Positions 29,818 to 46,290 of a stretch of DNA of 64,000 bases are shown in pieces. The number at the start of each line of letters is the position of its first letter. Position 1 is the stretch's first letter. The notes beneath the pieces were generated by a model that did no database searches, was not told the origin of the DNA, and saw only the letters and a list, made by a program, of their open reading frames with translations. Source of the stretch: Gammaproteobacteria bacterium (GTDB lineage: Bacteria > Pseudomonadota > Gammaproteobacteria > HK1). The DNA is taken from NCBI GenBank assembly GCA_965202895.1, contig OZ241901.1, positions 3,850,770 through 3,914,769 on the forward strand, written 5' to 3'. A program made the position numbers and the translations under genes.

Positions 29818-32800
29818 ATGAACGGCAACCCTCCGCTATTCGAAGGGCAGGTTCTCACCGGCGAGCTCTTCGACGAGCCCATGCGGATCGAGACCATCCA
29901 TGCGAACGGCCCCGGCGCATGGGATGCCGGCCTGGTCGGGGTCCGGTCGGAACGGTTCCGTCGGGTCACGCTGACGGCCGAGGACGTCGCGAGCCTCACC
30001 GTCACCGACCGGACGCTCTCCTACGACGGCGATGCAAGGCTGCTCCGCCTCGGGCTCCAGGCGTACTCCCTCGGCATCGCCTACGAGTTCGACCCCTTCT
30101 TCGGCCTCTCCATCTCCCGCGTGGACCCTCTTCCCCACCAGCTCGAAGCGGTCTACGAACACCTCCTCAAGCTCCCCGCCGTGCGCTTCCTCCTCGCCGA
30201 CGACGCCGGCGCCGGCAAGACCGTGATGGCGGGGCTTCTCGTCCGGGAGCTCAAGCTCCGGGGCCTCGCCGAACGGATCCTCGTCGTGTGCCCCGCGAAC
30301 CTCGCCTTCCAGTGGCAGCGCGAGCTCAAGGAGAAGTTCGACGAGAAGTTCCTCGTCTTCAAGGGCGGCGACGTCAGGGAACAGTTCGGCGTCAACCAGT
30401 GGCTCGAGCAGAAGCAGATCGTCACGTCGCTCGACCTTGCCAAACGCGGCGACGTCCTTCCGGGACTGCGGCAAGCGCACTGGGATCTGGTGATCGTGGA
30501 CGAGGCGCACCGGATGTCGGCGCGCGACGAAGCCCACAAGAGCCAGCGCTACCGGCTGGGCGAGCTGCTGCGCGACCGCGCCGATCACATCCTGCTGCTG
30601 ACCGCGACGCCCCACAAGGGCGATCCGCAGAACTTCACCCTGTTCCTCCAGCTCCTCGACCGCGATGCGTACGCGGACGTGCGCTCCATCCGGAAGGCGA
30701 TGGAGCGCCAGCGGGCGCCTTTCTACCTCCGCCGGACCAAGGAGGCGATGATCCATTTCCCGGAGCGCCGGGCGGACGGCCGTTGGGCGGCCCGACCCGT
30801 GTTCACGAAGCGGATCCCGCGCACCGCGAGCTTCGCCATCGACGGCGCGGAGCTCGACCTCTACCGGGAGGTGACGCAATTCGTGAAGCGACAGAGCCGG
30901 CGCGCCGCGGAGCGGCAGGACGACCCCAGGGCGCGGGCGGTCGGGTTCCTGATGTCCCTCTACCAGCGCCGCCTCGCCTCCAGCACCTGCGCCATGCGCC
31001 GCTCGCTCGAGAAACGGGCCGAACGGCTCGAAGACGGCCTCGCCCGAGCCGAGGACCTGGTGCGCACGGCTCCGCCCGGACTGCCCGATCCGGAAGACCT
31101 CGACGAGATGGAGGACGCCGAACGCGAGAGGATCGAACGGCAGCTCGATGCCGTCACCCTCGCCGGCAATGCGGCGCAGGTGCGCGAGGAGGTAGCCGAG
31201 CTCCGCCAGCTTGCCGCGAAGGCGAAGGAAGTCGAGGGCTCGGACGGCGAGGAGAAGCTCGGCCGGCTCGAGAAGATCATGCGCGAAGAAGGCTTCTTCG
31301 ACCGCCCCGATCAACGCCTCCTCCTCTTCACCGAGTTCACCGACACCCTCCGCTACCTGATGGGCCGGTTGGAGAGGTGGGGCTTCCGCGTCGGGTGCAT
31401 CCACGGCGGGATGAAACCCGGATCTCGCGACGAGCCGGGCACCCGGCTGTACGCGGAGCAGCGGTTCCGGGAAGGGGCCATCCAGGTGCTCATCGCCACC
31501 GAGGCGGCGGGCGAAGGGATCAACCTCCAGTGCTGCCACGTCCTGTTCAACTACGACATCCCCTGGAACCCCAACCGGCTCGAGCAGCGCATGGGGCGCA
31601 TCCACCGGTACGGCCAGCGGCAGGACTGCCTCATCTTCAACTTCGTCGCCGCCAACACGATCGAGGGGCGGGTGCTCGACCGCCTGCTCGCGAAGTTGCA
31701 GGAGATCCGGGACGCCCTCGACGACGACGCGGTCTTCAACGTGGTGGGCGAGGTGCTGCCCGGCGCCCAGGTGGAACGCGTGCTGCGGGACTACTACGCG
31801 GGCAGGCTGGGCGATGCCGACCTGGAAGATCGGCTCCTGAAGGACGTGGACGAAGCGCATTTCCGCTCGATCTGCCGGACGGCGCTGGAAGGTCTCGCGT
31901 CGAAGAAGCTCGACCTCGAGATGCTCGTGGAACGCCGGGCGCGAGCCCAGGAGCGGCGGGTCGTGCCGGAGACCATCGCGCGGTTCATGAGGGAGAGCGC
32001 CCGGGACGCGGGGCTTCCACTCGAACCGGTGGGGTCCCTGCCCCATGCCTTCGAGCCGGGACGGACCCCGGCGGCGCTGAAGGCGTTCGAACGGGAGGCA
32101 AGCGGGAAGACGGCGAGCCTCGCGGACCGCTATCCGCGTCTGTCGACGGACCGGGAGACGGCGGAGGAGCACGACCTCGAATGGGTGACCCCGGGACACC
32201 CGTTGTTCGAGGCCCTGCGCCGATGCAGCCTCGCGCGGGGGCGGGACGCCTTCTCCAGGGGCGCCTGCTTCCATTCCCTGGAGCACGAGGCGCCAGCCCG
32301 GCTCGATTTCTACCGGGCGCGGTTCGTGGACGGTCTCGGGCGCACCATCCACGAACGCCTCTTCACCGTGGAGCTCGTGCAGGGGAGGGCGCCGGCCCTG
32401 CGAGCCCCTGACGTCCTCGGGGACCTGAGCCCCGCGGCGACGCCCCCCGGCGTGCCGCCGCCTTCCATCGCTTCCTCGCCGGAGGAGACCCCGTGGCTCA
32501 ACGAGAATGCGTTGATGCGGCTGCTCCGCGAGGTGCGGAGGGAACGGGCCGCGGAGGTCGAGCGCATCGCCGGGCACGTCGATCTCTCGTTGACCGAGGT
32601 GTTGCAACGCACCGATGAGGAGATCGGGCGGGCGAGCGTGGACGTGGAGAAGGGAGTCGCCGGAGCGGAGGGCCGGCTCGTGCAGGCCGAGGCCCGGCAC
32701 TCCGAGGTTCTGGCGCGGCGCGAGAGGCGCCGCAAGGAGCTCGGGCAACAGCGCGCGGTCACCCTGCAGGGCGTCGAACGGATGGCGAGCGCCTTGGTGC

Positions 32801-33291
32801 TGCCCCACCCCGAACGCGGGTCCGAGGACGTGCGGCGCCTGAAGCCGAACCCCGAGACCGAGACGACGGCGATGGAGGTCGTCATGGAGTACGAGAGGGA
32901 GCAAGGACGGCAGGTCTACGACGTCCACAGGGAGAACCTCGGCTACGACGTGACCAGCCTCGATCTCGCGTCGGGCGAGCTGCGGCTGATCGAGGTGAAG
33001 GGGCTGGCCGCCCCGGCCGGGAGCATCCTGCTGACGCCGAACGAGCGCCGGGTGGCCGAGGATCGGCGCGACTGCTACTGGCTCTACGTGGTGACGGGCT
33101 GTGCGGCGGAGCCCGAGCTGCAGGAACCGATCAGGGACCCCGCCCGGTTCCCGTGGCATGAGGTCAGGAAGGTGCAGCACTACCGGCTGGACGTGGATGC
33201 GATGCGCGGGGGTCGGCCCGAAGCCGGCGCCGGCCGGGGGGCGACCGATCGATCCCGCCGCGCCGGAACCACCGGAAGGGGCGCGCCATGA
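29818..33291 (+). CDS. SNF2-family helicase with C-terminal DUF3883 (PD-(D/E)xK-like) domain
   Basis: LPHQLEAV...LADDAGAGKT (motif I), VIVDEAHR (motif II), LLLTATPHKG, then the helicase C-terminal region (LIATEAAGEGINLQ...WNPNRLEQRMGRIHRYGQ). The C-terminus is GYDVTSLDL...LRLIEVKG...LTPNERRVAE...YWLYVV. ATG 29818 is in frame in ORF 29482..33291. Confidence 0.9.
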   Translation: MNGNPPLFEGQVLTGELFDEPMRIETIHANGPGAWDAGLVGVRSERFRRVTLTAEDVASLTVTDRTLSYDGDARLLRLGLQAYSLGIAYEFDPFFGLSISRVDPLPHQLEAVYEHLLKLPAVRFLLADDAGAGKTVMAGLLVRELKLRGLAERILVVCPANLAFQWQRELKEKFDEKFLVFKGGDVREQFGVNQWLEQKQIVTSLDLAKRGDVLPGLRQAHWDLVIVDEAHRMSARDEAHKSQRYRLGELLRDRADHILLLTATPHKGDPQNFTLFLQLLDRDAYADVRSIRKAMERQRAPFYLRRTKEAMIHFPERRADGRWAARPVFTKRIPRTASFAIDGAELDLYREVTQFVKRQSRRAAERQDDPRARAVGFLMSLYQRRLASSTCAMRRSLEKRAERLEDGLARAEDLVRTAPPGLPDPEDLDEMEDAERERIERQLDAVTLAGNAAQVREEVAELRQLAAKAKEVEGSDGEEKLGRLEKIMREEGFFDRPDQRLLLFTEFTDTLRYLMGRLERWGFRVGCIHGGMKPGSRDEPGTRLYAEQRFREGAIQVLIATEAAGEGINLQCCHVLFNYDIPWNPNRLEQRMGRIHRYGQRQDCLIFNFVAANTIEGRVLDRLLAKLQEIRDALDDDAVFNVVGEVLPGAQVERVLRDYYAGRLGDADLEDRLLKDVDEAHFRSICRTALEGLASKKLDLEMLVERRARAQERRVVPETIARFMRESARDAGLPLEPVGSLPHAFEPGRTPAALKAFEREASGKTASLADRYPRLSTDRETAEEHDLEWVTPGHPLFEALRRCSLARGRDAFSRGACFHSLEHEAPARLDFYRARFVDGLGRTIHERLFTVELVQGRAPALRAPDVLGDLSPAATPPGVPPPSIASSPEETPWLNENALMRLLREVRRERAAEVERIAGHVDLSLTEVLQRTDEEIGRASVDVEKGVAGAEGRLVQAEARHSEVLARRERRRKELGQQRAVTLQGVERMASALVLPHPERGSEDVRRLKPNPETETTAMEVVMEYEREQGRQVYDVHRENLGYDVTSLDLASGELRLIEVKGLAAPAGSILLTPNERRVAEDRRDCYWLYVVTGCAAEPELQEPIRDPARFPWHEVRKVQHYRLDVDAMRGGRPEAGAGRGATDRSRRAGTTGRGAP

Positions 33292-33334
33292 ACCAAGCGC
33301 CTGAGCCCGCACGTGTGCGTTCCATCGCCAGGAT

Positions 33335-33590
33335 CGTTTCACGCTGCGGAATCGGTTCGCGGGGGTGAACCCGGTTCGGTCGAATCGGAGCGGCGAAGGT
33401 CCGGGGAACGGCGCCTCCCACGGATGCGGGCGTCCTCCGAACGCTTGTGTCCCGCCCGCAAATGGGGCGGCAAGACCGCCGCCGATCGATGCGGGCGAGA
33501 CACAAGCGTCCGGAGGACGCGCCGTTCCCAGGAAGAGCGGTGGGTATCGATGCCTGGCCGCGAGTCGGTCGGCGTGAAAGGGCCTTGGTT
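33335..33590 (-). repeat. type-2 composite palindromic element (inverted)
   Basis: cgtttcacgctgcggaatcggttcgcggggg...central hairpin cgaacgcttgtgtcccgcccgca...tgcgggcgagacacaagcgtccg...gtcggcgtgaaaggg. Confidence 0.7.
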
Positions 33591-33672
33591 CCATCGCGCG
33601 ACGGGGCGCCTCTGCGGTGCGGTGTAAGGCGTATGATGGCGGGGGTCCGTTTCCCACCGGGACACACTCGCC

Positions 33673-34419
33673 ATGAGCGCCCCCGCCACCATGCACACCG
33701 GCCCCCTCGGCTCCACCATCCACGTCCTCCGCGCCGACGCCGACACCATCGCCGAGCTCGCCGCCATCGACTGGAACCGCTGCTTCCGCCGGGTCTGCCT
33801 CGATCCGGTGCGCGGGATCATCACCCTGATGGCGCCTTCGTTCCGCCACGAAGACCTGTCTGAAATCATCGGCAACGTCGTGGACGATGTGGGGGACGCC
33901 ATCACCAGCGCCACGAAGGGGATCCGCAGCACCCGGCTTCGCGGGCGGGGCGAGCCGCCCGGCACGGGGATGGAGCCCGACTGCGCGTTCTACGTCGGCG
34001 AGCGCGCCAGAGGCTTTTACGTGGCCCGCGCCGAAGGGGAGGCGGCAGCCGACGCCTTCGTCGAGCGCACTGCGCCCGACTTGGTGGTGGAGGTCGAGAT
34101 CACGCACGCCGACGAGGGAAAGGCCGAGCGCTACGGCCAGATGGGGGTGCGGGAGCTGTGGCGGCTGCATGGGCGCAGAGGGACGAGGGAGCTGCGGGCG
34201 GACTTTCTGGCCCTGGGTCCCGGGAGGGCGCCGCGCCGGCTCGGCGCCTCGGTGGTGCTGGAAGGGCTGACCCCGGATGACGTCTGCGAGGCGGTGGAAG
34301 AGGTCGGGGCCGGCGAGACCCGCCGCCAACGGGCGGAGGCGGTGGCCCGCATCGTGCGCCGTCGGCGGCAGGCGAGCGCGCGGGTGCGGGAGGAGGCGGC
34401 GGCGTACTCCGTCCACTGA
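33673..34419 (+). CDS. Uma2 (DUF820) family putative PD-(D/E)xK endonuclease, paralog 1
   Basis: ...ITLMAPSFRHEDL..., GMEPDCAFYVG, APDLVVEVEITHADEGKAERYGQMGVRELWRLH. The pattern is the Uma2 signature (P..H / E-PD / D-x-V-E-V / K..Y...GV.EYW). Confidence 0.8.
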   Translation: MSAPATMHTGPLGSTIHVLRADADTIAELAAIDWNRCFRRVCLDPVRGIITLMAPSFRHEDLSEIIGNVVDDVGDAITSATKGIRSTRLRGRGEPPGTGMEPDCAFYVGERARGFYVARAEGEAAADAFVERTAPDLVVEVEITHADEGKAERYGQMGVRELWRLHGRRGTRELRADFLALGPGRAPRRLGASVVLEGLTPDDVCEAVEEVGAGETRRQRAEAVARIVRRRRQASARVREEAAAYSVH

Positions 34420-34485
34420 GGCGAGCGCGAGCCGCCGATCCTGCGAAGAAGACGGCGCCGGAAGGGGCGCGCCACGAAGAAAACG

Positions 34486-34803
34486 CCCCGGGCGCTGTTT
34501 GCAACCTCTTGATATAGCGGGTGGAGGTCGGGGGTCGAGATATTTTTTACCCTACGGGGACGGGCTGACTCCACGGTTTCGGGGCGGTTCGTGGGTCTGG
34601 TTAGCGGATTTCACCTCACGGAGCCGCTTGCGCGGGCACGGCGTCCTGGGAACGCTTGTGTCCCGCCCGCATTTTCTTCCGGGCGTATCGCTCTCGTGCG
34701 GGCGGGACACCCGCGTCTGGAAGACGCGCCGTTCCCAGGACGCCGTGCCCAAGAACGTTCGCGAGAGGCGTGTTTGGCGAAAGCCCCACAGCGCACATGC
34801 CTC
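34486..34803 (+). repeat. type-1 MITE-like repeat, copy D
   Basis: Full-length copy located in the spacer between Uma2 paralogs 1 and 2. Confidence 0.75.
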
Positions 34804-34879
34804 ATCGCACGGCGGGGCCTACGCGGTGCGGTGGAAGGCGTATGATGGGGGGTCCGCTTCCCACCGGGACACACTCGCC

Positions 34880-35620
34880 ATGAACGCCCCCGCCACCATG
34901 CACACCGGCCCCCTCGGCTCCACCATCCACGTCCTCCACGCCGACGCCGGCACCATCGCCGAGCTGGCCGCCATCGACTGGAACCGCTGTTTCCGCCGGG
35001 TCTGCCTCGACCCGGTGCGCGGGATCATCACCCTGATGGCGCCTTCGTTCCGCCACGACGATCTGGCCAGGATCCTGGACGATATCGTGGACATTGCCGG
35101 GAGTGCGACCGCCGGCGTATCGAAGGGGATCCGCAGCACCCGGCTTCGGGGACGGGGCGAGCCGCCCGGCACGGGGATGGAGCCCGATTGCGCGTTCTAC
35201 GTCGGCGAGCGCGCCAGAGGCTTCTACGCGGCCCGCGCCGAAGGGGAGGCGGCCGCCTTCGTCGAACGGACCGCGCCCGACCTGGTGGTGGAGGTCGAGA
35301 TCACGCACGCCGACGAGGGCAAGGCCGAACGCTACGGTGAGATGGGGGTGCGGGAGCTGTGGCGGCTGCATGGCCGCAAGGAGACGAGGGAGCTGCGGGC
35401 GGACTTCCTCGCCCTGGGTCCCGGGAGCGCGCCGCGCCGGCTCGACACCTCGGTGGTGCTGGAGGGGCTGACCCCGGATGACGTCTGCGAGGCGGTGGAA
35501 GAGGTCGGGGCCGGCCAGACCCACAGCCAACGGGCGGAGGCGGTGGCCCGCATCGTGCGCCGTCGGCGGCAGGCGAGCGCGCGGGTGCGGGAGGAGGCGG
35601 CGGCGTACTCCGTCCACTGA
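34880..35620 (+). CDS. Uma2 (DUF820) family putative endonuclease, paralog 2
   Basis: MNAPATMHTGPLGSTIHVLHADAGT... It is collinear with paralog 1. The ATG is in frame in ORF 34277..35620. Confidence 0.8.
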   Translation: MNAPATMHTGPLGSTIHVLHADAGTIAELAAIDWNRCFRRVCLDPVRGIITLMAPSFRHDDLARILDDIVDIAGSATAGVSKGIRSTRLRGRGEPPGTGMEPDCAFYVGERARGFYAARAEGEAAAFVERTAPDLVVEVEITHADEGKAERYGEMGVRELWRLHGRKETRELRADFLALGPGSAPRRLDTSVVLEGLTPDDVCEAVEEVGAGQTHSQRAEAVARIVRRRRQASARVREEAAAYSVH

Positions 35621-35786
35621 GGCGAGCGTGAGACACCGATCCTGCGAGGAAGACGGCGTCGGAAGGGGCGCGCCATGAACGAAGGGCCTGAACACGCACG
35701 TGTGCGTTCCATCGCGCGGCGGCGCTTGCGCGGTGCGGTGGAAGGCGTATGATGGCGAGTGTCCGTTTCCCGCCGGGACCCCCGCC

Positions 35787-36527
35787 ATGAACGCCCCCGC
35801 CACCATGCACACCGGCCCCCTCGGCTCCACCATCCACGTCCTCCACGCCGACGCCGGCACCATCGCCGAGCTCGCCGCCATCGACTGGAACCGCTGTTTC
35901 CGCCGGGTCTGCCTCGACCCGGTGCGCGGGATCATCACCCTGATGGCGCCCTCCCGTCTCCATGAGGACCTGTCCGAGATTCTCGGTGACATCGTGAAAG
36001 GCGCGGGAAACGCCATCGCCACCAAGAGCATCGGCAGCACCCGGCTTCGGGGACGGGGCGAGCCGCCCGGTACGGGGATGGAGCCCGATTGCGCGTTCTA
36101 CGTCGGCGAGCGCGCCAGAGGCTACTACGCGGTCCAGGCCGAAGGGGAAGCGGCCCTGGACGCCTTCGTTGAGCGCACCGCGCCCGACCTGGTGGTCGAG
36201 GTCGAGATCACGCACGTCGATGAGAGCAAGATCGAGCGATACGGTGAGATAGGGGTGCGGGAGCTGTGGCGGTTGCACGGGCGCAGAGGGACGAGGGAGC
36301 GGCGGGCGGATTTCCTCGCCCTGCGGGCCGGGAGGGCGCCGCGCCGGCTCGACGCCTCGATGGTGCTGGAAGGGCTGACCCCGGATGACGTCTGCGAGGC
36401 GGTGGAAGCGGTCGGGACCAGCCTGACCCACGACCAACGGACGGAGGCGGTGGCCCGAATCGTGCGCCGTCGGCGGCAGGCGAGCGTGCGGGTGCGGGAG
36501 GAGGCGGCGGCGTACTCCGTCCACTGA
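35787..36527 (+). CDS. Uma2 (DUF820) family putative endonuclease, paralog 3
   Basis: Same architecture as paralogs 1 and 2. The ATG is in frame in ORF 35700..36527. Confidence 0.8.
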   Translation: MNAPATMHTGPLGSTIHVLHADAGTIAELAAIDWNRCFRRVCLDPVRGIITLMAPSRLHEDLSEILGDIVKGAGNAIATKSIGSTRLRGRGEPPGTGMEPDCAFYVGERARGYYAVQAEGEAALDAFVERTAPDLVVEVEITHVDESKIERYGEIGVRELWRLHGRRGTRERRADFLALRAGRAPRRLDASMVLEGLTPDDVCEAVEAVGTSLTHDQRTEAVARIVRRRRQASVRVREEAAAYSVH

Positions 36528-36593
36528 AACGAGCGCGACCCGCCGGTCATGCGAAGAAGATGGCTTTGGAAGGGGCGCGCCATGAAGAAGGAG

Positions 36594-36911
36594 CCCCGGG
36601 CGCTGTTTGTAACCTATTGATATAGCGGGTGGAGATCGGGGTCGAGATATTCTTTACCCCCACGGAGACGGCGTTCTTCCGTGGTTTGGGTTCGGTTCGA
36701 GGGGGTTGCTGGCGGATTTCACCCCGCGGAGCCGCTTGCGCGGGCACGGCGTCCTGGGAACGCTTGTGTCCCGCCCGCATTTTCTTCCGGGTGCATCGCT
36801 CTCGTGCGGGCGGGACGCCCGCGTCTGGAAGACGCGCCGTTCCCAGGATGCCGTGCCCAAGAACGTTCGCGAGAGGCGTGTTTGGCGAAAGCCCCACAGC
36901 GCACATGCCTC
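36594..36911 (+). repeat. type-1 MITE-like repeat, copy E
   Basis: Full-length copy located in the spacer between Uma2 paralogs 3 and 4. Confidence 0.75.
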
Positions 36912-36988
36912 ATCGCACGGCGGCGCCTTCCGCGGTGCGGTGGAAGGCGTATGATGGCGGGTGTCCGTTTCCCACCGGGACCCCCGGC

Positions 36989-37735
36989 ATGAACGCCCCC
37001 GCCACCATGCACACCGGCCCCCTCGGCTCCACCATCCACGTCCTCCACGCCGACGCCGGCACCATCGCCGAGCTCGCCGCCATCGACTGGAACCGCTGTT
37101 TCCGCCGGGTCTGCCTCGACCCGGTGCGCGGGATCATCACCCTGATGGCGCCATCGTTCCCCCACGACGACCTGTCCGAAATCATCGGCGACGTCGTGAA
37201 AGACGCGGGAAGCGCCATCGCCGGCGTCATCAAGAGCATCGGCAGCACCCGGCTTCGGGGACGGGGCGAGCCGCCCGGCACGGGGATGGAGCCCGACTGC
37301 GCGTTCTACGTCGGCGAGCGCGCCAGAGGCTTTTATGCGGCCCGCGCCGATGGGGATGCGGCGGCCCTCGCCTTCGTCGAGCGCACCGCGCCCGACCTGG
37401 TGGTCGAGGTCGAGATCACGCATGTCGATGAGAGCAAGATCGAGCGCTACGGTGAGATGGGGGTGCGGGAGCTGTGGCGGTTGCACGGGCGCAAAGGGAC
37501 GAGGGAGCTGCGGGCGGACTTCCTCGCCCTGCGGGCCGGGAACGATCCGCGCCGGCTCGACGCTTCGGTGGTGCTGGAAGGACTGACCCCGGATGACGTC
37601 TGCGAGGCGGTAAAGGCGGTCGGGGACAGCCAGGCCCGCGACCAACAGACGGAGGCGGTGGCCCGCATCGTGCGCCGGCGGCGGCAGGCGAGCGCGCGGG
37701 TGCGGGAGGAGGCTGCGGCGTACTCCGTCCACTGA
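36989..37735 (+). CDS. Uma2 (DUF820) family putative endonuclease, paralog 4
   Basis: Same architecture as the other paralogs. The ATG is in frame in ORF 36629..37735. Confidence 0.8.
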   Translation: MNAPATMHTGPLGSTIHVLHADAGTIAELAAIDWNRCFRRVCLDPVRGIITLMAPSFPHDDLSEIIGDVVKDAGSAIAGVIKSIGSTRLRGRGEPPGTGMEPDCAFYVGERARGFYAARADGDAAALAFVERTAPDLVVEVEITHVDESKIERYGEMGVRELWRLHGRKGTRELRADFLALRAGNDPRRLDASVVLEGLTPDDVCEAVKAVGDSQARDQQTEAVARIVRRRRQASARVREEAAAYSVH

Positions 37736-37913
37736 GGCGAGCGCGACCCGCACCCTGTACAATCGACGGACCTCGGGCGCACGGGGTGCTGAAGAAGATG
37801 GAATCGAAGGAGGTTCTCCGCCGTGTGCCGAAACCATCGGAAGGGGCGCTCGCCACGAGCGGAATACCCCCCCGACCCGTACCATGACCAACCAACCACG
37901 GAGGCCAGGAGAC

Positions 37914-38120
37914 ATGGCTGATCACATACTGACGACCCGCGCGGTCCGACGACCGTACCAGACCTTCCCTGCCATGCCGGATCACGTTCGGTATGATCCC
38001 GGAAGGGGTTATTGGCTCAAAGACGGAGAGCCGCTGGTCGCTGCGCCCGATTTCTTGAGCGACATTTCCAACAGCAAGAAGTGTGATCAGGAAACAGGAG
38101 AGGATCAGAAAGGCGAATGA
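37914..38120 (+). CDS. small ORF (68 aa; 78 aa from ATG 37884), candidate substrate/precursor peptide of the downstream ATP-grasp
   Basis: GGAGG (37900-37904) lies 9 nt before ATG 37914. The stop overlaps the next start (ATGA at 38117-38120). The C-terminal tail FLSDISNSKKCDQETGEDQKGE is rich in Ser/Thr, Lys and Asp/Glu. There is no homology evidence. Confidence 0.4.
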   Translation: MADHILTTRAVRRPYQTFPAMPDHVRYDPGRGYWLKDGEPLVAAPDFLSDISNSKKCDQETGEDQKGE

Positions 38121-39079
38121 ATCCCCGTGTTCTCATACTTTCAGGCCTGTACGATTTTTCGGCGGACCTCGTTGCCTTGCGGCTGCGACACAGCGGAGCG
38201 CCTTATATCCGCCTGAATAGAGAACAGCTTGCCGATCATTCACTTACGCTCGATCCCCTCGTCCCCGAGCTGACCATACGTGGCCCGGCAGGCACCTGCA
38301 ACGTGGGTCAGGATCTGCGATCCATCTGGTTCCGCCAACCCGTTTTCTTGCGAAATACCCCTCCGACCCCGCTTTCGCTCCAGGATCAGTTTGAACGTTC
38401 TCAATGGACGGCCTTTCTTCGGGCGCTATGTGTCTTCCGCGACGCGGCTTGGATGAATTTTCCGGCCGCCACGTATCTTGCGGAATCCAAACCGTATCAG
38501 CTATCCATTGCATCCAGTTGCGGATTTCAGGTTCCGGAAACGCTGGTGACCAACGATGCACATCGCATCCGTAGCGCGTTTCCAGGAACTCTCGTCATCA
38601 AATCGCTGGACACGGTGTTGCTGCGTGATGGAGACGACTGTCTGTTCACCTATACGACCCTGGATCCGGAAAATGAATTAACGGAAGAAAACATCAATAC
38701 GGCGCCCCTGCTCGCACAATATGCCTTGGAAGACAAGATCGATCTGCGAGTCACCGTGATCGGCGATGAGATATTCGCGGTCCGTATACTTTCGCATGGA
38801 TCCGGGATTCCCGGCGACTGGCGTTTGATACCGAAAGCCGATCTTGAATACGAGGACTTTGCGCCGACCGAAGATATGGCTCGATGCTGCTTCCTGTTGA
38901 CACGCCGTCTTGGTCTTTCCTTTTCCGCCATCGATCTGATTGAAACCACCCAAGGGATATTTTTCATCGAAGTCAATCCTACCGGGGAATGGGGATGGCT
39001 ATCAACGCCTGAGCGGCCAATGGATCGCGCCATAGCTTCCTGGCTGGAGAATCCTTCCTGTGCGAAGGAGTGGAGCTGA
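38117..39079 (+). CDS. ATP-grasp enzyme, microviridin-type (MdnB/C, MvdC/D-like) peptide ligase family
   Basis: 320 aa. The segments ESKPYQLSIASSCGFQVPETLVTND, DLRVTVIGDEIFAV, GDWR and FSAIDLIETTQGIFFIEVNPTGEWGWL match, from memory, the conserved blocks of graspetide maturases (..LRITIVG..IF.., DWR, AIDMI....IFLEINPVGEF.WL). The gene lies in AT-richer DNA. Confidence 0.85.
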   Translation: MNPRVLILSGLYDFSADLVALRLRHSGAPYIRLNREQLADHSLTLDPLVPELTIRGPAGTCNVGQDLRSIWFRQPVFLRNTPPTPLSLQDQFERSQWTAFLRALCVFRDAAWMNFPAATYLAESKPYQLSIASSCGFQVPETLVTNDAHRIRSAFPGTLVIKSLDTVLLRDGDDCLFTYTTLDPENELTEENINTAPLLAQYALEDKIDLRVTVIGDEIFAVRILSHGSGIPGDWRLIPKADLEYEDFAPTEDMARCCFLLTRRLGLSFSAIDLIETTQGIFFIEVNPTGEWGWLSTPERPMDRAIASWLENPSCAKEWS

Positions 39080-39084
39080 TTCCG

Positions 39085-39708
39085 ATGCGTATTCCTCGGT
39101 TTCTTGAAGAGATATTCCCCTTTGTCAGTTATCTCGTATACTCTCGCCGCCTGAGACGACGTAGTGAATCGGGAGAAATCCTGAGCGAGAGAGAATTCAA
39201 AAACTACATCGATCTTTCCGAAGACATGATCAAGGAAAGATTGAAGGAGGAACACCAGCGGGCGTCGACGATGGATGAGAAGACATCGAAGTTGACGTTT
39301 TCAATTTCCATGGCACTGACTTTCGTTGGAGCCGCGGTAGTCTTCTTGAAAAATACCATATCTCCCGTCGCTATGCAGGCCGGTCTTTCCGTGCTGATAA
39401 ATTCCCTGATCTTCCTCGGTTTGTTTTATAGCACAATGGCTGGTCTGGTGGCGCTGGGCGCGCTGCGTACTGCGCCCCGGCACGGTTACGGCACCCAATT
39501 CTTGCTGGAACAGAATAAGCCCATGAATGAGAAATTGGCGGAATCCCTTGCTCGTCAGGAAGTCATCAACCTTGTTCGGCATTTACGCAATGAAGCAGCC
39601 TTTCAGTGTTTGAGAAACGGTCTTTTGCTCTTTATCGTAGTGATCATGATGTTTACGGGAATTTTCGTATGGCGGTTTCTTTCTGCGTTCTCATTGAGCA
39701 TTAGTTGA
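39085..39708 (+). CDS. multi-pass membrane protein (hypothetical; effector- or transporter-like)
   Basis: GGAG lies 8 nt before ATG 39085, and the track gives GTG 39070 as an alternative start. The N-terminal ~65 aa are charged and soluble. Hydrophobic segments follow: LTFSISMALTFVGAAVVFL, LSVLINSLIFLGLFYSTMAGLVALGAL and LLLFIVVIMMFTGIFVWRFLSAF. The TGA at 39706-39708 directly abuts the next ATG. Confidence 0.65.
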   Translation: MRIPRFLEEIFPFVSYLVYSRRLRRRSESGEILSEREFKNYIDLSEDMIKERLKEEHQRASTMDEKTSKLTFSISMALTFVGAAVVFLKNTISPVAMQAGLSVLINSLIFLGLFYSTMAGLVALGALRTAPRHGYGTQFLLEQNKPMNEKLAESLARQEVINLVRHLRNEAAFQCLRNGLLLFIVVIMMFTGIFVWRFLSAFSLSIS

Positions 39709-42708
39709 ATGATCCCCAAGGCGTGCAAGCGGCTGGCGGAGGTCGATTTCCCCATCGCCGAGGTCTCGCGGCACGCGGCGCGGGAGAAGTCGATCCGGCA
39801 CGGGCATCCTTCGACCCTGCATCTGTGGTGGGCGCGCCGCCCGCTGGCCTCCTCGCGGGCGGTGCTGATGGCGCTGCTGCTGCCGGACCCCTGCGACCCG
39901 CAATGCCCGGAGGCGTTCAGGAAGGAGGCGCGGCGGATCCTTCTCGGGATGCACGGGCGTCCGGGTGGATGGACCGGCGCCATCCGGTCGGACGAAGGGT
40001 TGCGGCGGATCCTTCTCAAGTTCATCGCCGACTTCGCCGATTGGGACCATGCCGCGGATCGCATCTGGCTCGATACGGGCCGCGCGCTGGTGAGGGCGGC
40101 GCACGGCGAGGGGCCGCCTCTGGTCGTGGATCCGTTCGCGGGCGGCGGCTCGATCCCGCTCGAAGCCCTGCGGCTCGGCTGCGAGGCGTTCGCCAGCGAC
40201 CTGAACCCGGTCGCCTGCCTGATCCTCAAGGTGATGCTGGAGGACGTCCCGCGCCACGGGCCGGGGCTGGCCGACGAGCTGCGCAGGGTCGGCGGCGAGA
40301 TCAGGCAGGCGGCGGAACGGGAACTGGCCGGTCTCTACCCCGCGGACCTGGACGGGAGCACGCCCATCGCCTACTTGTGGGCGCGCACGGTGCTCTGCGA
40401 GGCCCCGAGCTGCGGGGCGGAGATCCCGCTGCTGCGTTCGCTGTGGCTTGCGAAGAAGGCGGTCTTCAGGAGGGAGCGCGGCGAGCGGATCAAGGTCAGA
40501 GGCCGTCAGGCGCTTCGGTATCGGATCGTGCGAGCGGCCAAGGGGCCGCCGCGGGTCGAGTGGGAAGTGTTCGAGCCGGCCACCGACAAGGACGTGCGCG
40601 ACGGCACGGTCACGCGGGCGAAGGCCGCCTGCCCGTGCTGCGGCGCGGTCCTGCCGCCGGAGCGGGTGCGGGTGCAGCTCTCCGAGCAGCGCGGCGGCGC
40701 GGACATGATCTTCGACGGCAAAGGGAGGCGCATCGGCGGCGCGCGCATGACCGCGGTGGTGACGCTGAAGGAGAACGAGCCGGGCCGGCGCTATCGGCTG
40801 CCGACGGATGCCGATTATGCGGCGGTGCACGAGGCGCAGGCGCGGCTGGCAGGGATTCTCGACGAATGGGAGCGGGGCGGGAGGCAGGGGCTTTGCCCGG
40901 TGCCGGATGAACCGATTTCGCTGAACGAGATTCGACGCATCAGCGTACCAATCTACGGAATGACGACATGGGGGGACCTGTTCACGGCGCGGCAGAAGGT
41001 AGTCTTGGTCGAACTCCTCCTCGCCATCCGGAAAACCGATGTAGTCGACACGGAGCATATGCTCGCCTGTGCGTTCAACCGTATATCCATGAGCAACATG
41101 TCTTGCACTCGATGGAACGCTGTAGCAGAGAAGATGCAGCATACCTTTGGCCGGCAAGCTCTTCCCATCGTGTGGGATTTCGCCGAGATCGCAGTGACGG
41201 CGGAAGCTCCAGGTAACTGGAAAAGTGGATACTGTCTTGTAGCTGACGTTGTCGACGCGGCGCGTAGTATGCAGAGTGCGCAAACTCAATTCGCCGACGC
41301 AATAGAACATCCCCTGCCCGACGAAGCCGCCGGAGTCTGGTTCACCGATCCACCCTACTACGATGCCGTCCCGTATGCGCACTTGTCGGATTTCTTCTTC
41401 GTCTGGCTCAAGCGCGCCGTGCCGGAACAAATGATGACTCTTTGCAATCTCGTCGATCCGCAAGACTTGACTCCGAAGGAAAGGGAGATTGTCGTTGATC
41501 GACCGCATCGGCTCAGCACTTCGACCAAGACGGCAGAGACCTACGAATCAGGAATGGCTCGGGCGTTTACCGAAGGGCGACGTATCCTGCACCAGGACGG
41601 TATCGGATCGGTCGTCTTCGCCCACAAGACAACCGAGGGCTGGGAGGCTCTGCTGACCGGGATAATCAGCGGCGGTTGGACCATTACCGGCTCGTGGCCG
41701 GTAGCGACGGAGATGGGTTCTCGTCTCAATGCCCGTGATACCGCGTCCCTCGCCACCAGCGTCCATCTCGTCTGCCGGCCTCGGCCCGACGACGCGCCGG
41801 TGGGCGATTGGGCGGACGTGCTGCGCGAGCTGCCGAGGCGCGTGGGCGACTGGATGGAGCGGCTTCAGGGCGAGGGCGTGCGCGGGGCGGATCTGGTCTT
41901 CGCCTGTATCGGCCCGGCGCTGGAGATCTTCAGCCGGTACTCGGTCGTCGAGACGCCGGAAGGTGCGGAAGTCCGTCTGCCCGTCTACTTGGAACGGGTC
42001 TGGGAGGTGGTGGGCCGGACCGCGCTCGAGACCGTGCTCGGCGCCGGAGAGGCGAAGGCCCGCAACGGGCAGGTCGGCGCGCTGGAGGAGGACGCCCGCC
42101 TCACGGCCCTGTTCCTCTGGACCCTCCAGAGCACGGAGGACCCCGAGGAGAACGACGCGAAGGAAGCACGGGACGAGGAAGGGAACGAAGCGGGCAGGGG
42201 GCTCGCGCTCCCCTTCGACGTGGTGCGCCGTTTCGCCCAGCCCATGGGGATCGACCTCGACGCCTGGACGGACCGGATCATCGGACAGGACAAGGGGGTG
42301 GTGCGCCTGCTGCCGGTTCTCGAACGTGCGCAACGGCTCTTCGGCGAGGACGGGGCCGGTGCGGCGGCGGAATGGATCGAAGCGGACCCGGGCGGGGCTG
42401 CCCAGCTCGACCTCTTTCCCTCGGCGCAGGCCCGACCGCGAAGCAGGAGGCATCGCCGACGCAAGCCGTCCATCGTGGAAGACGGCGCCGAGCTTCAGGC
42501 GGTCGACGCGACGACGCTGGATCGCGTCCATGCGGCCATGCTCCTCCAGGCAAGCGGTCACGCCAATGCGCTCAGGACGCTGATCGCCGCGGAGCAGGAA
42601 CGCGGCCCGGACTTCCTGCGGCTCGCCAACTCGCTCTCGGCCCTGTACTCGAGAGGCAGCGAGGAGAAGCGGTTGCTCGACGCGATGCTGCTGGCGGTCC
42701 CCCGGTGA
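39709..42708 (+). CDS. DUF1156 (COG1743-like) DNA methyltransferase with Zn-ribbon
   Basis: N-terminus: FPIAEVSRHAAREKSIRHGHPSTLHLWWARRP. SAM motif I: VVDPFAGGGSIPLEA. Cys pairs: CEAPSCG...CPCCG. Catalytic motif: TDPPYYD. Confidence 0.9.
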   Translation: MIPKACKRLAEVDFPIAEVSRHAAREKSIRHGHPSTLHLWWARRPLASSRAVLMALLLPDPCDPQCPEAFRKEARRILLGMHGRPGGWTGAIRSDEGLRRILLKFIADFADWDHAADRIWLDTGRALVRAAHGEGPPLVVDPFAGGGSIPLEALRLGCEAFASDLNPVACLILKVMLEDVPRHGPGLADELRRVGGEIRQAAERELAGLYPADLDGSTPIAYLWARTVLCEAPSCGAEIPLLRSLWLAKKAVFRRERGERIKVRGRQALRYRIVRAAKGPPRVEWEVFEPATDKDVRDGTVTRAKAACPCCGAVLPPERVRVQLSEQRGGADMIFDGKGRRIGGARMTAVVTLKENEPGRRYRLPTDADYAAVHEAQARLAGILDEWERGGRQGLCPVPDEPISLNEIRRISVPIYGMTTWGDLFTARQKVVLVELLLAIRKTDVVDTEHMLACAFNRISMSNMSCTRWNAVAEKMQHTFGRQALPIVWDFAEIAVTAEAPGNWKSGYCLVADVVDAARSMQSAQTQFADAIEHPLPDEAAGVWFTDPPYYDAVPYAHLSDFFFVWLKRAVPEQMMTLCNLVDPQDLTPKEREIVVDRPHRLSTSTKTAETYESGMARAFTEGRRILHQDGIGSVVFAHKTTEGWEALLTGIISGGWTITGSWPVATEMGSRLNARDTASLATSVHLVCRPRPDDAPVGDWADVLRELPRRVGDWMERLQGEGVRGADLVFACIGPALEIFSRYSVVETPEGAEVRLPVYLERVWEVVGRTALETVLGAGEAKARNGQVGALEEDARLTALFLWTLQSTEDPEENDAKEARDEEGNEAGRGLALPFDVVRRFAQPMGIDLDAWTDRIIGQDKGVVRLLPVLERAQRLFGEDGAGAAAEWIEADPGGAAQLDLFPSAQARPRSRRHRRRKPSIVEDGAELQAVDATTLDRVHAAMLLQASGHANALRTLIAAEQERGPDFLRLANSLSALYSRGSEEKRLLDAMLLAVPR

Positions 42709-42716
42709 CCAGGGTC

Positions 42717-43060
42717 CTTTCATGCCGACCGACTCGCGGCCGGGCATCAATGCCCACCGCTCTTCGTGGGAACGGCGTGTCCTTCGGACGCGGGGGTCCT
42801 GCCCACATCGATCGGCGGCGGTTTTGCCCTCCCATTGAAGGTGCGCCGCCGATCCTCGTCACCCGGATCCGACGCCCGCATCGATCGGCGGCGGTCTTGC
42901 CGTCCCATTTGCGGGCGGGACGCCCGCGTTCCGCAGGACGCGCCGTTCCCAGGACGCCCGCATCCGTGGGAGGCGCCGTCCCCGGCACCTTCGCCGCTCT
43001 CATTCGACCGAACCGGGTTCACCCCCGCGAACCGATTCCGCGGCGTGAAACGACCCTGCC
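42717..43060 (+). repeat. type-2 composite palindromic element (extended, two hairpin modules)
   Basis: cctttcatgccgaccgactcgcggcc...catcaatgcccaccgc...gcgggcgggacgcccgcgttcc...ccgaaccgggttcacccccgcgaaccgattccgcggcgtgaaacg. Confidence 0.7.
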
Positions 43061-43077
43061 GGTGACGGTCCCCCGAG

Positions 43078-43379
43078 GCTCGGGCGATGTTCGTAGATTA
43101 TTGATATATAAAGTGTAGAGAGGGGGTCGAGATATTTTTTACCCCCACAGAGATGGCGTTGTTCCGTGGTTTGGAGTCGGTTCGAGGGGCATTTCGGCGG
43201 ATTTCACCCCACGGAGCCTCTTGCGCGGGCACGGCGTCCTGGGAACGCGGGCGTCCCGCCCGCATTTTCTTCCGGGCGCTTCGCCCCCGTGCGGGCGGGA
43301 CGCCCGCGTTCCCAGGACGCCGTGCCCAAGAGCGTTCGCGAGAGGGTGCCCGGCGAAAACTCCACAGCGCGCATGCCTC
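43078..43379 (+). repeat. type-1 MITE-like repeat, copy F
   Basis: Full-length copy lying immediately after the type-2 element and upstream of the DUF499 gene. Confidence 0.75.
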
Positions 43380-43512
43380 GTCCCCCGGTGACGAAATGAC
43401 AGGCAGATGAAAAGACTGCACAATGCGTGAGGCAGCGGCGCGCATATCGGGCCGGCGAAGCTGCGGACGTTCGAGCCGTTCCCGCGTGAAGCCAGCCGAA
43501 CCGGAGATCCGA

Positions 43513-46290
43513 ATGGACCCCTGGTACAAGGTCGTGGCCCCTCGCAAGGAGGTGCGCGAGGGCCGCTCGTTCAGCCCGGATGAGTTCGCGATCGCTCTCG
43601 AGCAGGTGGTCGCGGGAACCGCGCCCGAGGACTACCGGGATGCGGCGCAGTTCTTCTCCCGCACCTGCTTCACCCGCGCCCTGAAGGAGCACACCGGGAT
43701 GGTGCTCCGGAGGCTCTCGGGGAAGACCGGGAACACCGCCCCGGTCGTGACCCTGATCACCCAGTTCGGCGGCGGCAAGACGCACACGCTCGCCTCGCTC
43801 TACCACCTCGCCGAGGCCGGCGAAGACGCCCTGGAGCTCCCCGGGGTCCTGGAGCTGCTGGCCGACGAGAACGTCGACTCGCCCCCGTCCGCCCAGGTCG
43901 GGGTGTTCGTCGGCAACGCGTGGGACCCGATGGAAGGCCGGGAGACGCCCTGGATCGATCTGGCCCGGCAGCTTGCCGGCGAGCAGGGGGTCCGGGCGCT
44001 CGGAACCGACGCGAGGGCGACCCCGCCCGGAACGGAAGCGCTCGGCCGGGTCTTCGCCGCCGCGAACGCCCCCGTGCTGCTGCTCTTCGACGAGGTGCTC
44101 AACTTCGTGAACCGCCACCGCGGCATGGCGGAGAAGTTCCATGCCTTCCTCCAGAACCTGACCGTAGCGGTCACCGGCGCCACACACGCCGCCGCGGTCA
44201 TCAGCCTGCCGCGGAGCCAGGTCGAGATGACCGCGTGGGACCAGGAATGGCAGGAGCGGATCACCAAGGTCGTCCGCCGCGTCGCCCGCGACCTGATCGC
44301 CAACGACGAGTCGGAGATCAGCGAGGTGGTGCGGCGGCGGCTGTTCGAGGACCCGGGCAGCGAGAGGGTTCGCCGAAGGGTCGCGAAGACCTACGCGGAC
44401 TGGTGCTTCGAGAGGAGGCATCAGCTTCCGCCGGAGTGGATGGCCGTCGATACGGCGGCGACCGAAGCCAGGGCGCGCGAGCTCCTGAGAGATCGGTTCG
44501 ATGCCTGCTACCCGTTCCATCCCGCGACCCTCTCGGTGTTCCAGCGCAAGTGGCGGGCCCTGAGCCAGTTCCAGCAGACCCGGGGGATCCTCGCGATGCT
44601 CGGCCAATGGATCTCCCGGGCCGCCGCCAGGCACTTCCGCGAAGCACGGACCGAGCCGCTGATCACCTTGGGATCGGCGCCTCTGGAGGTCCCCGAATTT
44701 CGCGCCGTCGTCCTTGGACAGCTGGGGGAATCGAGGCTCGACGCGGCGATCGAGGCCGATCTGGCCGGGGCGACGGCGCACGCCAGGGCGCTGGATGCGG
44801 ACACGGCCGGGCCGCTTCGGGACATCCACCGGCGGGTGGGAGCCGCGATCCTCTTCGAGTCTTCCGGCGGACAGGTGGACAAGGTGGCGCATCTGCCCGA
44901 GCTTCGCTTCGCGCTCGGGGAGCCCGAGGTGGACACCACGACCATCGACAGCTCCGCCACCGCCCTCGAGAGCGCGGGGTTCTTCCTCCGGAAGGTGGGT
45001 ACGGACGGCTTCCGGGTCCACCATCAAGCGACCTTGAAGAAGGTCGTCAGCGATCGGAGGGCATCGCTCGACGAGGAGAGCGAGATCAAGCCCGCCATGA
45101 GGAGCCTGGTCGGCAACGGGTTCGCGAAGGGCGCCGAGCTGCCCCTGGTCAGGTTTCCCTCGGACGGCAAGGCGATCGAGGACCGGCCGCGCCTCACGCT
45201 GGTCGTCGTGGACCCGGAGACCGAGTGGAGCGGCGATGGCCGGACACGAGAATGCCTCGTACGGTGGACGCGGGAGCGCGGAACGTCGCCGCGGCTCTAT
45301 CCGGGCTCCCTCGTCTGGTGCGTGAAGAAGCCGGGGCGGGAGCTTCGAGACAAGGTCGAGCACTGGCTCGCCTGGCAGAGGGTCGAGCGGGAGGTCGCGG
45401 AAGGGATACTCGGAGCGGAGTACGACCGGGCCGACAGGACGGAGGTACGCGCGAAGCGGAAGGAGGCGGAAGATGCGGCCCTGGACGAGGTGTGGGGCAG
45501 CTACCGTTTCGCCGTCTTCGCCGACTCCGGCCGGGAGGGAGGCATCGGAAGCATCGACCTCGGGGCCGGGCACTCGAGCGCGAACGAGACGCTCTGCGGC
45601 CGGGTCGTCGCCGCCCTGAAGTCCGAGGGGCTGCTGAACGAAGGGATCGGGGCCGGCTACCTCGACCGGCACTGGCCGCCGGCCCTCGAGGAGGCGGGCG
45701 CATGGCCTCTCACGAGCCTGCGGCAGAGCTTCCTCGACGGCTCGCTGACCCGTCTGGTGGATCCCGAGAAGGTGCTGCAACGGAAGGTCGTCGAGTTCGT
45801 CGAGAGCGGCGCGTTCGGGCTGGCGTCGGGGACCAGGGAGGAGGGCGGGTACGAACGGCTGTGGTATGCCGAGCCGGTCGGGCGCGACGAAGTCGCCTTC
45901 GAGCGGGACGTCTTCCTGCTGACCAGGGCGAAGGCGGAGCAGCTTCGGGCCGCCCCGCCCGGCGGCGCGCCGCAAGCGGAGGGAGGACCGGATCCGGAGA
46001 CGACGCACAGGCCCGCGCCGGAGACGGAGACAGGGCCGCCCCCCGGTCCTGCGCCCGGGCCCCGCGAGCGGACCGCGACCCTTCGCATGAAGGGCGCCGT
46101 GCCGCCCGAGGTCTGGAACCGTCTCGGGACGAAGGTCATCCCGAAGCTGCGGGCCGGCGACGGGCTCACGGTGGGCGTGGACTTCCACGTGAGCCTCCCC
46201 GCACGGCAGGCGGAGGCGCTGGAATCGGAGCTTCGGCAGGTGCTCGCCGACCTTGAATTGACCGCTGCCGTGCGCATGGAACGGTCATAG
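43513..46290 (+). CDS. DUF499 (COG1483-like) ATPase
   Basis: MDPWYKVVAPRKEVREGRSFSPDEFAIALEQVV...ITQFGGGKTHTLASLYHL (Walker A)...VLLLFDEV (Walker B-like). GGAG lies 6 nt before ATG 43513, which is in frame in ORF 43423..46290. Confidence 0.9.
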   Translation: MDPWYKVVAPRKEVREGRSFSPDEFAIALEQVVAGTAPEDYRDAAQFFSRTCFTRALKEHTGMVLRRLSGKTGNTAPVVTLITQFGGGKTHTLASLYHLAEAGEDALELPGVLELLADENVDSPPSAQVGVFVGNAWDPMEGRETPWIDLARQLAGEQGVRALGTDARATPPGTEALGRVFAAANAPVLLLFDEVLNFVNRHRGMAEKFHAFLQNLTVAVTGATHAAAVISLPRSQVEMTAWDQEWQERITKVVRRVARDLIANDESEISEVVRRRLFEDPGSERVRRRVAKTYADWCFERRHQLPPEWMAVDTAATEARARELLRDRFDACYPFHPATLSVFQRKWRALSQFQQTRGILAMLGQWISRAAARHFREARTEPLITLGSAPLEVPEFRAVVLGQLGESRLDAAIEADLAGATAHARALDADTAGPLRDIHRRVGAAILFESSGGQVDKVAHLPELRFALGEPEVDTTTIDSSATALESAGFFLRKVGTDGFRVHHQATLKKVVSDRRASLDEESEIKPAMRSLVGNGFAKGAELPLVRFPSDGKAIEDRPRLTLVVVDPETEWSGDGRTRECLVRWTRERGTSPRLYPGSLVWCVKKPGRELRDKVEHWLAWQRVEREVAEGILGAEYDRADRTEVRAKRKEAEDAALDEVWGSYRFAVFADSGREGGIGSIDLGAGHSSANETLCGRVVAALKSEGLLNEGIGAGYLDRHWPPALEEAGAWPLTSLRQSFLDGSLTRLVDPEKVLQRKVVEFVESGAFGLASGTREEGGYERLWYAEPVGRDEVAFERDVFLLTRAKAEQLRAAPPGGAPQAEGGPDPETTHRPAPETETGPPPGPAPGPRERTATLRMKGAVPPEVWNRLGTKVIPKLRAGDGLTVGVDFHVSLPARQAEALESELRQVLADLELTAAVRMERS

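Follow-up and report, generated by a model that had tools for sequence, protein, structure and literature searches.

A probable Hma (Type-1 DUF499-centred BREX-related) system with embedded Uma2 genes and a putative graspetide module in a gammaproteobacterium

Introduction

The name Hma dates from 2021, when this candidate system of three genes was reported from 26 phyla (PMC8565338), and in a 2026 analysis the family received the new name of DUF499-centred BREX-related systems (PMC12839542). In this classification Type-1 systems possess a helicase with a C-terminal PD-(D/E)XK nuclease, Type-2 systems an N-terminal HKD nuclease together with DUF3780, and Type-3 systems PglZ and an inactive STAND domain. 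At the level of structure, the Type-1 helicase is further characterized by an N-terminal TUDOR domain together with an inactive REase and an alpha+beta domain, the ATPase by an RRM-like domain at its C-terminus and the methylase by a C-terminal helix-turn-helix triad (PMC12839542). Here we analyzed a stretch of 64,000 nucleotides from a gammaproteobacterium (contig OZ241901.1 of assembly GCA_965202895.1), called the window in the following, which contains a helicase, a methylase and an ATPase gene (hmaA, hmaB and hmaC) with seven further genes between hmaA and hmaB.

Experiments within this family exist only for the system of Halomonas meridiana. The HmaA protein of this organism is a nickase which on its own shielded Escherichia coli from phage T4, and both the helicase and the nuclease domain were required for this effect (PMC11232893). 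The presence of additional genes within Hma loci is well documented: embedded genes were found in 931 of 1,485 Hma systems (62.7%; Payne et al. 2024 preprint) and insertions in about 66.5% of the hma loci (PMC11232893), and according to published surveys the embedded genes mostly have the same orientation as the hma genes.

Results

The three core genes match the Hma models

The top PADLOC model for the helicase was HmaA (5.4e-169, 562 bits), with a match from profile position 54 to 1131 of 1176 that includes the nuclease tail. The methylase was best matched by HmaB (3e-105, 351 bits) and the ATPase by HmaC (4.6e-89, 298 bits, profile positions 3-817 of 941). The rival PADLOC models on the helicase were DrmD (401 bits) and BrxH (359 bits), which both cover the helicase core only, and PLD_Helicase (101 bits); DUF1156_MTase reached 141 bits, DUF499 56 bits and mad2 16 bits. 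HmaA consists of a Swi2/Snf2 helicase and a C-terminal PD-(D/E)XK nuclease (NOV_C/DUF3883), with the motifs GAGKT, DEAH, TAT and QRMGR and the nuclease signature D...EVK. HmaB contains motif I (DPFAGGG), motif IV (DPPY) and the Zn-ribbon cysteines Cx4C and CPCC, and HmaC a Walker A (GGGKT) and a Walker B motif (LLLFDE). Reading frames in the window, which has a G+C content of about 70%, were picked by the G+C content at third codon positions (GC3). All three hma genes are uninterrupted open reading frames (ORFs) with GC3 values of 0.82-0.89, typical of host coding sequence.

For comparison we used 43 loci with relatives of HmaB (40-76% identity) from many phyla, taken from GTDB species representatives; 29 of them hold all three genes. 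The order hmaA, hmaB, hmaC on one strand was found in each of the 29 complete loci, with gaps of variable length. Because the homologs of HmaA, HmaB and HmaC are collinear in all of these loci, the helicase belongs to the system and is not, as had been considered at the outset, a part of something unrelated. On the basis of sequence we consider the locus, with a probability of roughly 85%, an intact Hma system, that is a Type-1 DUF499-centred BREX-related system, with embedded cargo.

The window resembles the described Hma or Type-1 systems (PMC8565338, PMC12839542) in the three proteins, their order, strand and domain make-up and in the co-orientation of the embedded genes. There are also differences. 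About half of the described systems carry a HEPN fusion on the ATPase, whereas no N-terminal HEPN fusion was found on HmaC of the window, and the cargo families of the window, Uma2 and a putative graspetide module, are neither among those published nor among those seen in the relatives. The Halomonas meridiana system (PMC11232893) belongs to the same family, shares the conserved catalytic motifs of HmaA and also has its cargo, Septu, between hmaA and hmaB, but the type of cargo and the host lineage differ from the window.

These results are in line with the original prediction, in which a model working from the sequence had recognized a three-component restriction-modification-like module, corresponding to a cassette predicted from defence islands: the HmaA, HmaB and HmaC models score far above DrmD, BrxH, PLD_Helicase, DUF1156_MTase and DUF499. 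The helicase, methyltransferase and ATPase genes were found at the predicted positions on the + strand, and the DUF3883, DUF1156 and DUF499 assignments, for which domain searches had been named beforehand as the check, are all backed by Pfam. The ORF and GC3 analysis and the catalytic motifs likewise bear out the claim of co-directional, intact components. Four Uma2 paralogs (33673..37735) and the ATP-grasp cassette (37915..39708) do lie between helicase and methylase.

The split layout is ordinary and the cargo is not

In the window hmaA and hmaB are separated by 6,418 nt and hmaB and hmaC by 804 nt. Among the complete related loci the hmaA-hmaB gap has a median of 1,510 nt (range 13-6,333 nt) and exceeds 500 nt in 24 of 29 cases; for the hmaB-hmaC gap the median is 1,844 nt (range 56-6,738 nt) and 500 nt are exceeded in 26 of 29. 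The hmaA-hmaB gap of the window is therefore the largest of 30 loci, and it tops the range, yet it is not out of family. Together with the published frequencies of embedded genes, these gaps contradict the original statement that the genes of the trio are normally adjacent. The accompanying reading of the cargo as inserted genes that split the module did not stand either, in so far as it implies a recent disruption: the order of hmaA, four Uma2 genes, ATP-grasp module and hmaB is kept in the related locus L045 at about 80% nucleotide identity.

The 101 ORFs in the gaps of the relatives encode mainly AAA_21 (18), AAA_15 (17), Schlafen (9), DUF4276 (6) and GmrSD (6) proteins, followed by HEPN (3), MNT (3) and TIR (2), which is the published Hma repertoire. 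Uma2 or ATP-grasp genes were not detected in the cargo of the 43 hmaB-related loci. Because the gaps are in keeping with the family and the cargo of the relatives lacks both Uma2 and ATP-grasp, the split layout is ordinary for Hma and only the cargo is unusual.

The PADLOC-based survey of Hma loci set an upper limit of three embedded genes in a gap (Payne et al. 2024 preprint), whereas the window has seven in one gap, and for this reason the survey would have missed the locus. Callers which permit few intervening genes probably call such a locus incomplete or do not find it. Long insertions are therefore undercounted when embedded cargo is surveyed.

Comparison with other systems

Type-2 and Type-3 BREX-related systems and Type-3 BREX share with the window a homologous ATPase, N6-methylase and Swi2/Snf2 helicase, but their hallmarks are absent from it: neither the N-terminal HKD/PLD nuclease and DUF3780 of Type-2 nor the PglZ and STAND proteins of Type-3 are present. 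HmaA has no PLD domain (PLD_Helicase 101 bits, HmaA 562 bits), and a DUF3780 protein does not occur in the island, which led us to reject a Type-2 assignment. Type-3 BREX-related systems and BREX were rejected because a PglZ or inactive STAND (BrxB-like) domain was detected neither in the ORFs between 29.4 and 46.3 kb nor in the flanking genes. In the case of DISARM, the helicase core alone resembles DrmD, with a score below that of HmaA and below the NCBIfam cut-off, and DrmA, DrmB and DrmC are missing. A methylation-associated system (MADS), which had been suggested as a possible match, is not supported either, as the only match to the mad1-mad8 set was that of HmaB to mad2 with 16 bits.

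Gene layout of the locus

The coordinates of the features are listed in Table 1. The genes of the locus form a run on the + strand in the order hmaA, four Uma2 genes, precursor ORF, ATP-grasp gene, a gene of 207 codons for a membrane protein, hmaB and hmaC. The run is flanked by a gene for a Crp-family regulator on the minus strand (28432..29133) and by a narK-narK-narGH..I nitrate-respiration cluster, which begins at 46762. Longer ORFs are possible for hmaA (from 29482) and hmaC (from 43423). The starts at 29818 and 43513 agree with the starts of the hidden Markov model (HMM) matches and with the alignments of relatives and are located outside the repeat described below. The shorter starts were preferred because the long ORFs from 29482, 34277 and 36629 run into repeats.

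Table 1. Coordinates and assignments of the features in and around the hma locus (positions in the window)
Feature	Position	Strand	Assignment or basis
Repeat copy upstream of hmaA	29418..29692	+	long ORF from 29482 crosses the copy
hmaA	29818..33291	+	SNF2-rel_dom 1e-16, Helicase_C 4e-23, NOV_C (=DUF3883) 2e-21; PADLOC HmaA
Repeat modules in hmaA-uma2 spacer	33323..33600	.	repeat search of the window
Uma2 paralog 1, 248 aa	33673..34419	+	Pfam Uma2, PD-(D/E)XK family
Repeat copy upstream of Uma2 paralog 2	34483..34820	+	repeat search and alignment
Uma2 paralog 2, 246 aa	34880..35620	+	Pfam Uma2
Uma2 paralog 3, 246 aa	35787..36527	+	Pfam Uma2
Repeat copy upstream of Uma2 paralog 4	36591..36928	+	repeat search and alignment
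Uma2 paralog 4, 248 aa	36989..37735	+	Pfam Uma2
Graspetide precursor-like peptide, 68 aa	37915..38120	+	conserved leader, near-invariant core SKKCDQETGEDQKGE
Putative ATP-grasp RiPP maturase, 320 aa	38117..39079	+	closest to group-7 (marinomonasin) graspetide synthetase
Partner membrane protein, 207 aa	39085..39708	+	three predicted transmembrane segments; alternative GTG start 39070
hmaB	39709..42708	+	DUF1156 3e-22; PADLOC HmaB; DUF1156 amino-methyltransferase
Repeat-module block in hmaB-hmaC spacer	42710..43392	.	683 nt; perfect 38-nt inverted repeat
hmaC	43513..46290	+	DUF499 1.5e-14; PADLOC HmaC; ORC/Cdc6-like AAA+ ATPase

In a different part of the window a very long ORF (9220-14154, about 1,645 aa) contains many tandem units, which measure 87-96 nt at 10.0-11.0 kb and about 255 nt at 12.2-13.0 kb, and its product resembles a repetitive surface or autotransporter-type protein.

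A dispersed repeat occupies the hmaB-hmaC spacer

The spacer between hmaB and hmaC contains direct and inverted repeats, and the same sequences recur across the window. The repeat has a length of about 330 nt and possesses, besides an AT-rich core (TTGATATAG...TCGAGATATTTTTTACCCC), hairpin arms of 38 nt that are perfect. Six full copies are present, three of them listed in Table 1 and the others at 18428-18750, 27808-28051 (minus strand) and 43075-43394, and partial modules were found at 3647-3850, 42708-43060 and 56892-57073 in addition to those downstream of hmaA. The six full copies align with a mean column identity of 78%. Each of them (6/6) precedes the next gene and shares its orientation; these genes are an infC-side operon, a xanthine-dehydrogenase-like gene, hmaA, Uma2-2, Uma2-4 and hmaC. 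The repeats belong to the genome and not to Hma, and the hmaB-hmaC spacer has probably been widened by this genome-wide element. Of the original description of stacked repeats between methylase and ATPase, the repeats themselves proved to be real, but they are not specific to the locus, with copies across the window.

The 683-nt block in the spacer is bracketed by an exact 13-nt direct repeat (GTCCCCCGGTGAC) at 42697-42709 and 43380-43392, and the first copy contains the stop codon of hmaB. By a rough estimate about 0.04 such match pairs are expected by chance. The direct repeat may be a target-site duplication, and the arrangement would fit an insertion of the block into an ancestral spacer of about 120 nt. 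An Rfam search of the window yielded transfer RNAs only and no match for the dispersed repeat, and a simple promoter and terminator scan gave no above-chance signal that could account for it. The repeat may be a miniature inverted-repeat transposable element which carries a promoter or a 5'-untranslated region element. A different segment of about 180 nt occurs twice in the window (24883-25067 and 61727-61908, 92-99% identical, 36.8 kb apart) and is unrelated to the dispersed family.

The Uma2 array

In the Pfam search three of the Uma2 copies scored about 30 bits and the fourth 26.7 bits, with a cut-off of 27. The motifs EPDCAFYVG and APDLVVEVE are present in all four, and the proteins are 85-89% identical to the first copy. 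The array consists of two units of 2,108 nt, each with two genes and one repeat element. Pairwise ratios of non-synonymous to synonymous substitution rates (dN/dS) of 0.2-0.5 indicate purifying selection on the paralogs. Alignment columns 55-90 are far more diverged than their homogenised surroundings at both synonymous and non-synonymous sites, which suggests that the flanks have been homogenised and this segment kept distinct. Locus L045 also contains four tandem Uma2 genes (L045 6083-9674), but there is no one-to-one orthology with the four genes of the window, a result consistent with concerted evolution. The phage defence candidate (PDC) PDC-S17 of PADLOC is matched weakly, and in three of the four copies over only about 35 residues.

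The putative graspetide module

The stretch from 37.9 to 39.7 kb has a G+C content of 52%, compared with 69% in the flanks. The ATP-grasp protein matched the NCBIfam models GRASP_SAV_5884 (3e-50) and MvdC (5e-34), both under the curated cut-offs, and the structures 9bou, 7m4s, 5ig8, 5ig9 and 7mgv in the PDB; microviridin-type ligases are among the solved structures. To the group-7 synthetase of a 2026 graspetide survey it shows 51% identity over 124 aligned C-terminal residues, the reference sequence available from the survey being the C-terminal 133 residues, and to six other graspetide groups, which were compared over all three alignment blocks, 30-38%. Membership in group 7 (marinomonasin) is thus suggested by the ligase alone, and by the part of the reference given in that survey.

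The precursor aligns with 56 distinct homologs, which share the leader and a near-invariant C-terminal core, (S/T)KK-x-D-x-ETGEDxKGE. This core is rich in Ser, Thr and Lys as donors and in Asp and Glu as acceptors, as would be expected of a candidate graspetide. It is near invariant across modules whose ligases are 38-97% identical, which points to one conserved target. The stop codon of the precursor gene overlaps the start of the ligase gene (ATGA), and that of the 207-aa gene abuts the ATG of hmaB. For the 207-aa partner, which has three predicted transmembrane segments, Pfam and PADLOC searches gave no family assignment. The three module genes occur together in nearly all of about 80 loci, a few of which have two precursor copies; a gene for an exporter or a protease was not found in the module.

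With the group-7 clusters as described in the literature (marinomonasin; Kaweewan 2021 via PMC9576775, PMC13097080) the module shares the ligase type, the donors and acceptors of the core and the duplicate precursors at some loci. The neighbours published there (GNAT, LysR and Bcr/CflA efflux) are absent from the window, and in contrast to these clusters the module lies inside a defence system and has a membrane protein without annotation as its partner. The Hma-embedded candidates (HEC) and PDC (Payne et al. 2024 preprint) show the same co-oriented nesting between hma genes, but the ATP-grasp protein and its partner matched no model of PADLOC-DB v2, and Uma2 only PDC-S17.

Distribution of the module

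The block 37912-41013, which comprises the module and the 5'-most 1.3 kb of hmaB, has collinear counterparts in the loci L045 and L133 (both 82% nucleotide identity) and L046 (72%), and L132 is 96% identical to the window over 5.9 kb. These four loci and the window share the module-hmaB junction, at which the stop codon directly adjoins the start. A sub-lineage of hmaB has therefore long carried the module on its 5' side. The complete order hmaA-Uma2-module-hmaB is found in L045 in a different chromosomal setting, and L133 and L046 contain the module and no Uma2 genes.

Closely related modules adjoin Type ISP enzymes (L044, L124 and L126) or a Type IIG enzyme (L127), and in L125 the neighbours are HEPN_AbiV, ParB and transposase genes. 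Just downstream of the module in L127 (10069-12261) there is an unannotated protein of 730 aa which the HmaB profile matches weakly (118 bits). Among 77 module loci from Joint Genome Institute (JGI) metagenomes, 37 of which have a flank of 3 kb or more on one side, none had an HmaB, Type ISP or Type IIG neighbour in a search with four query proteins and one HMM. A general adjacency of the module to N6-methylase enzymes was rejected on this result, and because it is missing from this more distant sample the adjacency is specific to the near clade. The 148 proteins that neighbour the metagenome modules belong to 146 different Pfam families, among them ResIII, PrrC-like AAA_13, Abi_alpha, ThsB-TIR, PIN, PLD, integrases and resolvases. 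In annotated plasmids, integrases, SIR2, an OLD-type endonuclease accompanied by a UvrD helicase (Gabija-like) and AbiE are encoded in the vicinity of the module. In most hosts the G+C content of the module is below that of the flanks. Sequenced phages contained two remote ligase homologs only (29-33% identity), and a phage-borne counter-defence origin of the module is not supported.

Our literature searches found no report that links the graspetide module, or ATP-grasp with defence islands, to defence. In the graspetide survey, group 10 is described as often located near AAA_15 ATPases, PcrA helicases and integrases, which its authors discuss as possible self-resistance genes (PMC13097080); the co-occurrence is 43% for AAA_15, 40% for the PcrA helicase, 39% for integrase and 22% for SmpB (PMC13097080, Table S4). 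The neighbourhood looks like Gabija in an island beside the tmRNA gene and suggests that other graspetide groups reside in defence islands as well.

A mosaic hmaB gene

For HmaB residues 1-380 and 681-740 the closest relative is L045 or L046, and for residues from about 360 to 680 it is found among other loci. A dip in GC3 at residues 400-640 (window 40900-41650) coincides with this switch in the closest relative and is common to 16 homologs from high-GC genomes. The low-GC3 segment is a clade feature and not a local insertion, and it was perhaps exchanged between hosts. We also considered that the cassette (37.9-39.7 kb) and the hmaB patch (40.9-41.6 kb) had been inserted together in a single recent event, but rejected this reading: the intervening 5' part of hmaB (1.2 kb) has a G+C content of 70-75%, the cassette and the 5' end of hmaB form an old collinear block in L045, L046 and L133, and the GC3 dip recurs in the 16 homologs.

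Discussion

Judged from the family, the system would work in three steps. HmaB, with its Zn-ribbon-bearing recognition insert, would methylate host DNA at a specific motif, HmaC would sense invading DNA and assemble the complex, and the HmaA translocase-nuclease would nick or cut unmarked DNA; part of the last step has been shown for the Halomonas homolog. The seven genes between hmaA and hmaB would be embedded passengers as Hma commonly hosts them. All of them have the orientation of the core genes and they are probably co-transcribed with them.

Several points weigh against an intact Hma system of this kind. None of the NCBIfam models was passed by the trio, the anti-phage DUF1156, DUF499 and PLD-domain models remained far under their cut-offs, and a curated equivalog was not found. 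The low scores fit a different subtype; in our reading these three NCBIfam models describe the PLD-helicase variant. In the Halomonas study, overexpression of HmaB in the host on which phage was grown gave the phage no protection (PMC11232893); methylation-based self-protection, which is presumed for Hma, was not seen there, and the restriction-modification logic of the family is still unproven. For the locus in the window, anti-phage activity, methylation and target motif are predictions from the family. In addition, the strong hairpins of the spacer could attenuate the expression of hmaC.

It seems unlikely to us that the embedded genes are working parts of a ten-gene composite, which would be a new Hma subtype with the Uma2 proteins as extra effectors and the graspetide module as regulator or guard of the methylase. 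The whole gene order is kept in L045 in spite of its distance and different setting, the module-hmaB junction is kept in five loci, all genes are co-oriented, and close relatives of the module lie beside other large N6-methylase enzymes (three Type ISP, one Type IIG). Such a composite is hard to reconcile with the lack of Uma2 and module in all 43 hmaB-related loci, with the two loci that carry the module without Uma2 and with the Halomonas HmaA, which is sufficient alone for defence. Moreover, most homologs of the module lie outside Hma, as the 77 metagenome loci illustrate.

Far less probable is a decaying remnant, in which insertions of Uma2, the low-GC cassette and repeats had uncoupled the three genes and disabled the system. 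The size of the hmaA-hmaB gap (6.4 kb) and the repeat elements with perfect 38-nt hairpins in four spacers would agree with this, but every ORF and catalytic motif is intact, the GC3 is that of host genes, the arrangement is retained in two relatives, one 96% and the other about 80% identical, and working Hma loci as a rule contain embedded genes. That the helicase stems from another system (DISARM DrmD, BREX BrxH or a helicase-Uma2 pair), with only hmaB and hmaC as a unit, is barely credible: the matches to DrmD and BrxH and to the NCBIfam DrmD model (355 bits) are strong, but the HmaA model spans nearly the full length including the nuclease tail, the NCBIfam cut-off is 610 bits, DrmA/B/C, PglZ and BrxA/B/L genes are absent, and an HmaA homolog precedes hmaB in all complete loci.

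The module is possibly a resident of defence islands and not a secreted natural-product cluster, either as an anti-phage system of its own or as a guard or regulator of large N6-methylase restriction enzymes; we put this forward tentatively, as the less likely side of the question. Compatible with it are the position of the module 5' of hmaB in five loci, its location beside Type ISP or Type IIG enzymes in four others and near SIR2, Gabija-like and AbiE genes on plasmids, the near-invariant core peptide, the absence of an exporter and a protease, and the absence of a model in PADLOC-DB v2.

The trio and its split layout are already known, and the trio itself adds little. In the guilt-by-embedding approach, phage defence was observed for seven of the nine Hma-embedded candidates that were tested (Payne et al. 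2024 preprint). By this logic the locus nominates two candidates, the tandem Uma2 array and, as the more interesting one, the peptide-cyclising module of the type that produces ribosomally synthesised, post-translationally modified peptides (RiPPs). If it is true that a cross-linked peptide serves phage defence or the control of restriction-type enzymes, this would join RiPP natural products and bacterial immunity, two fields which have so far been studied separately.

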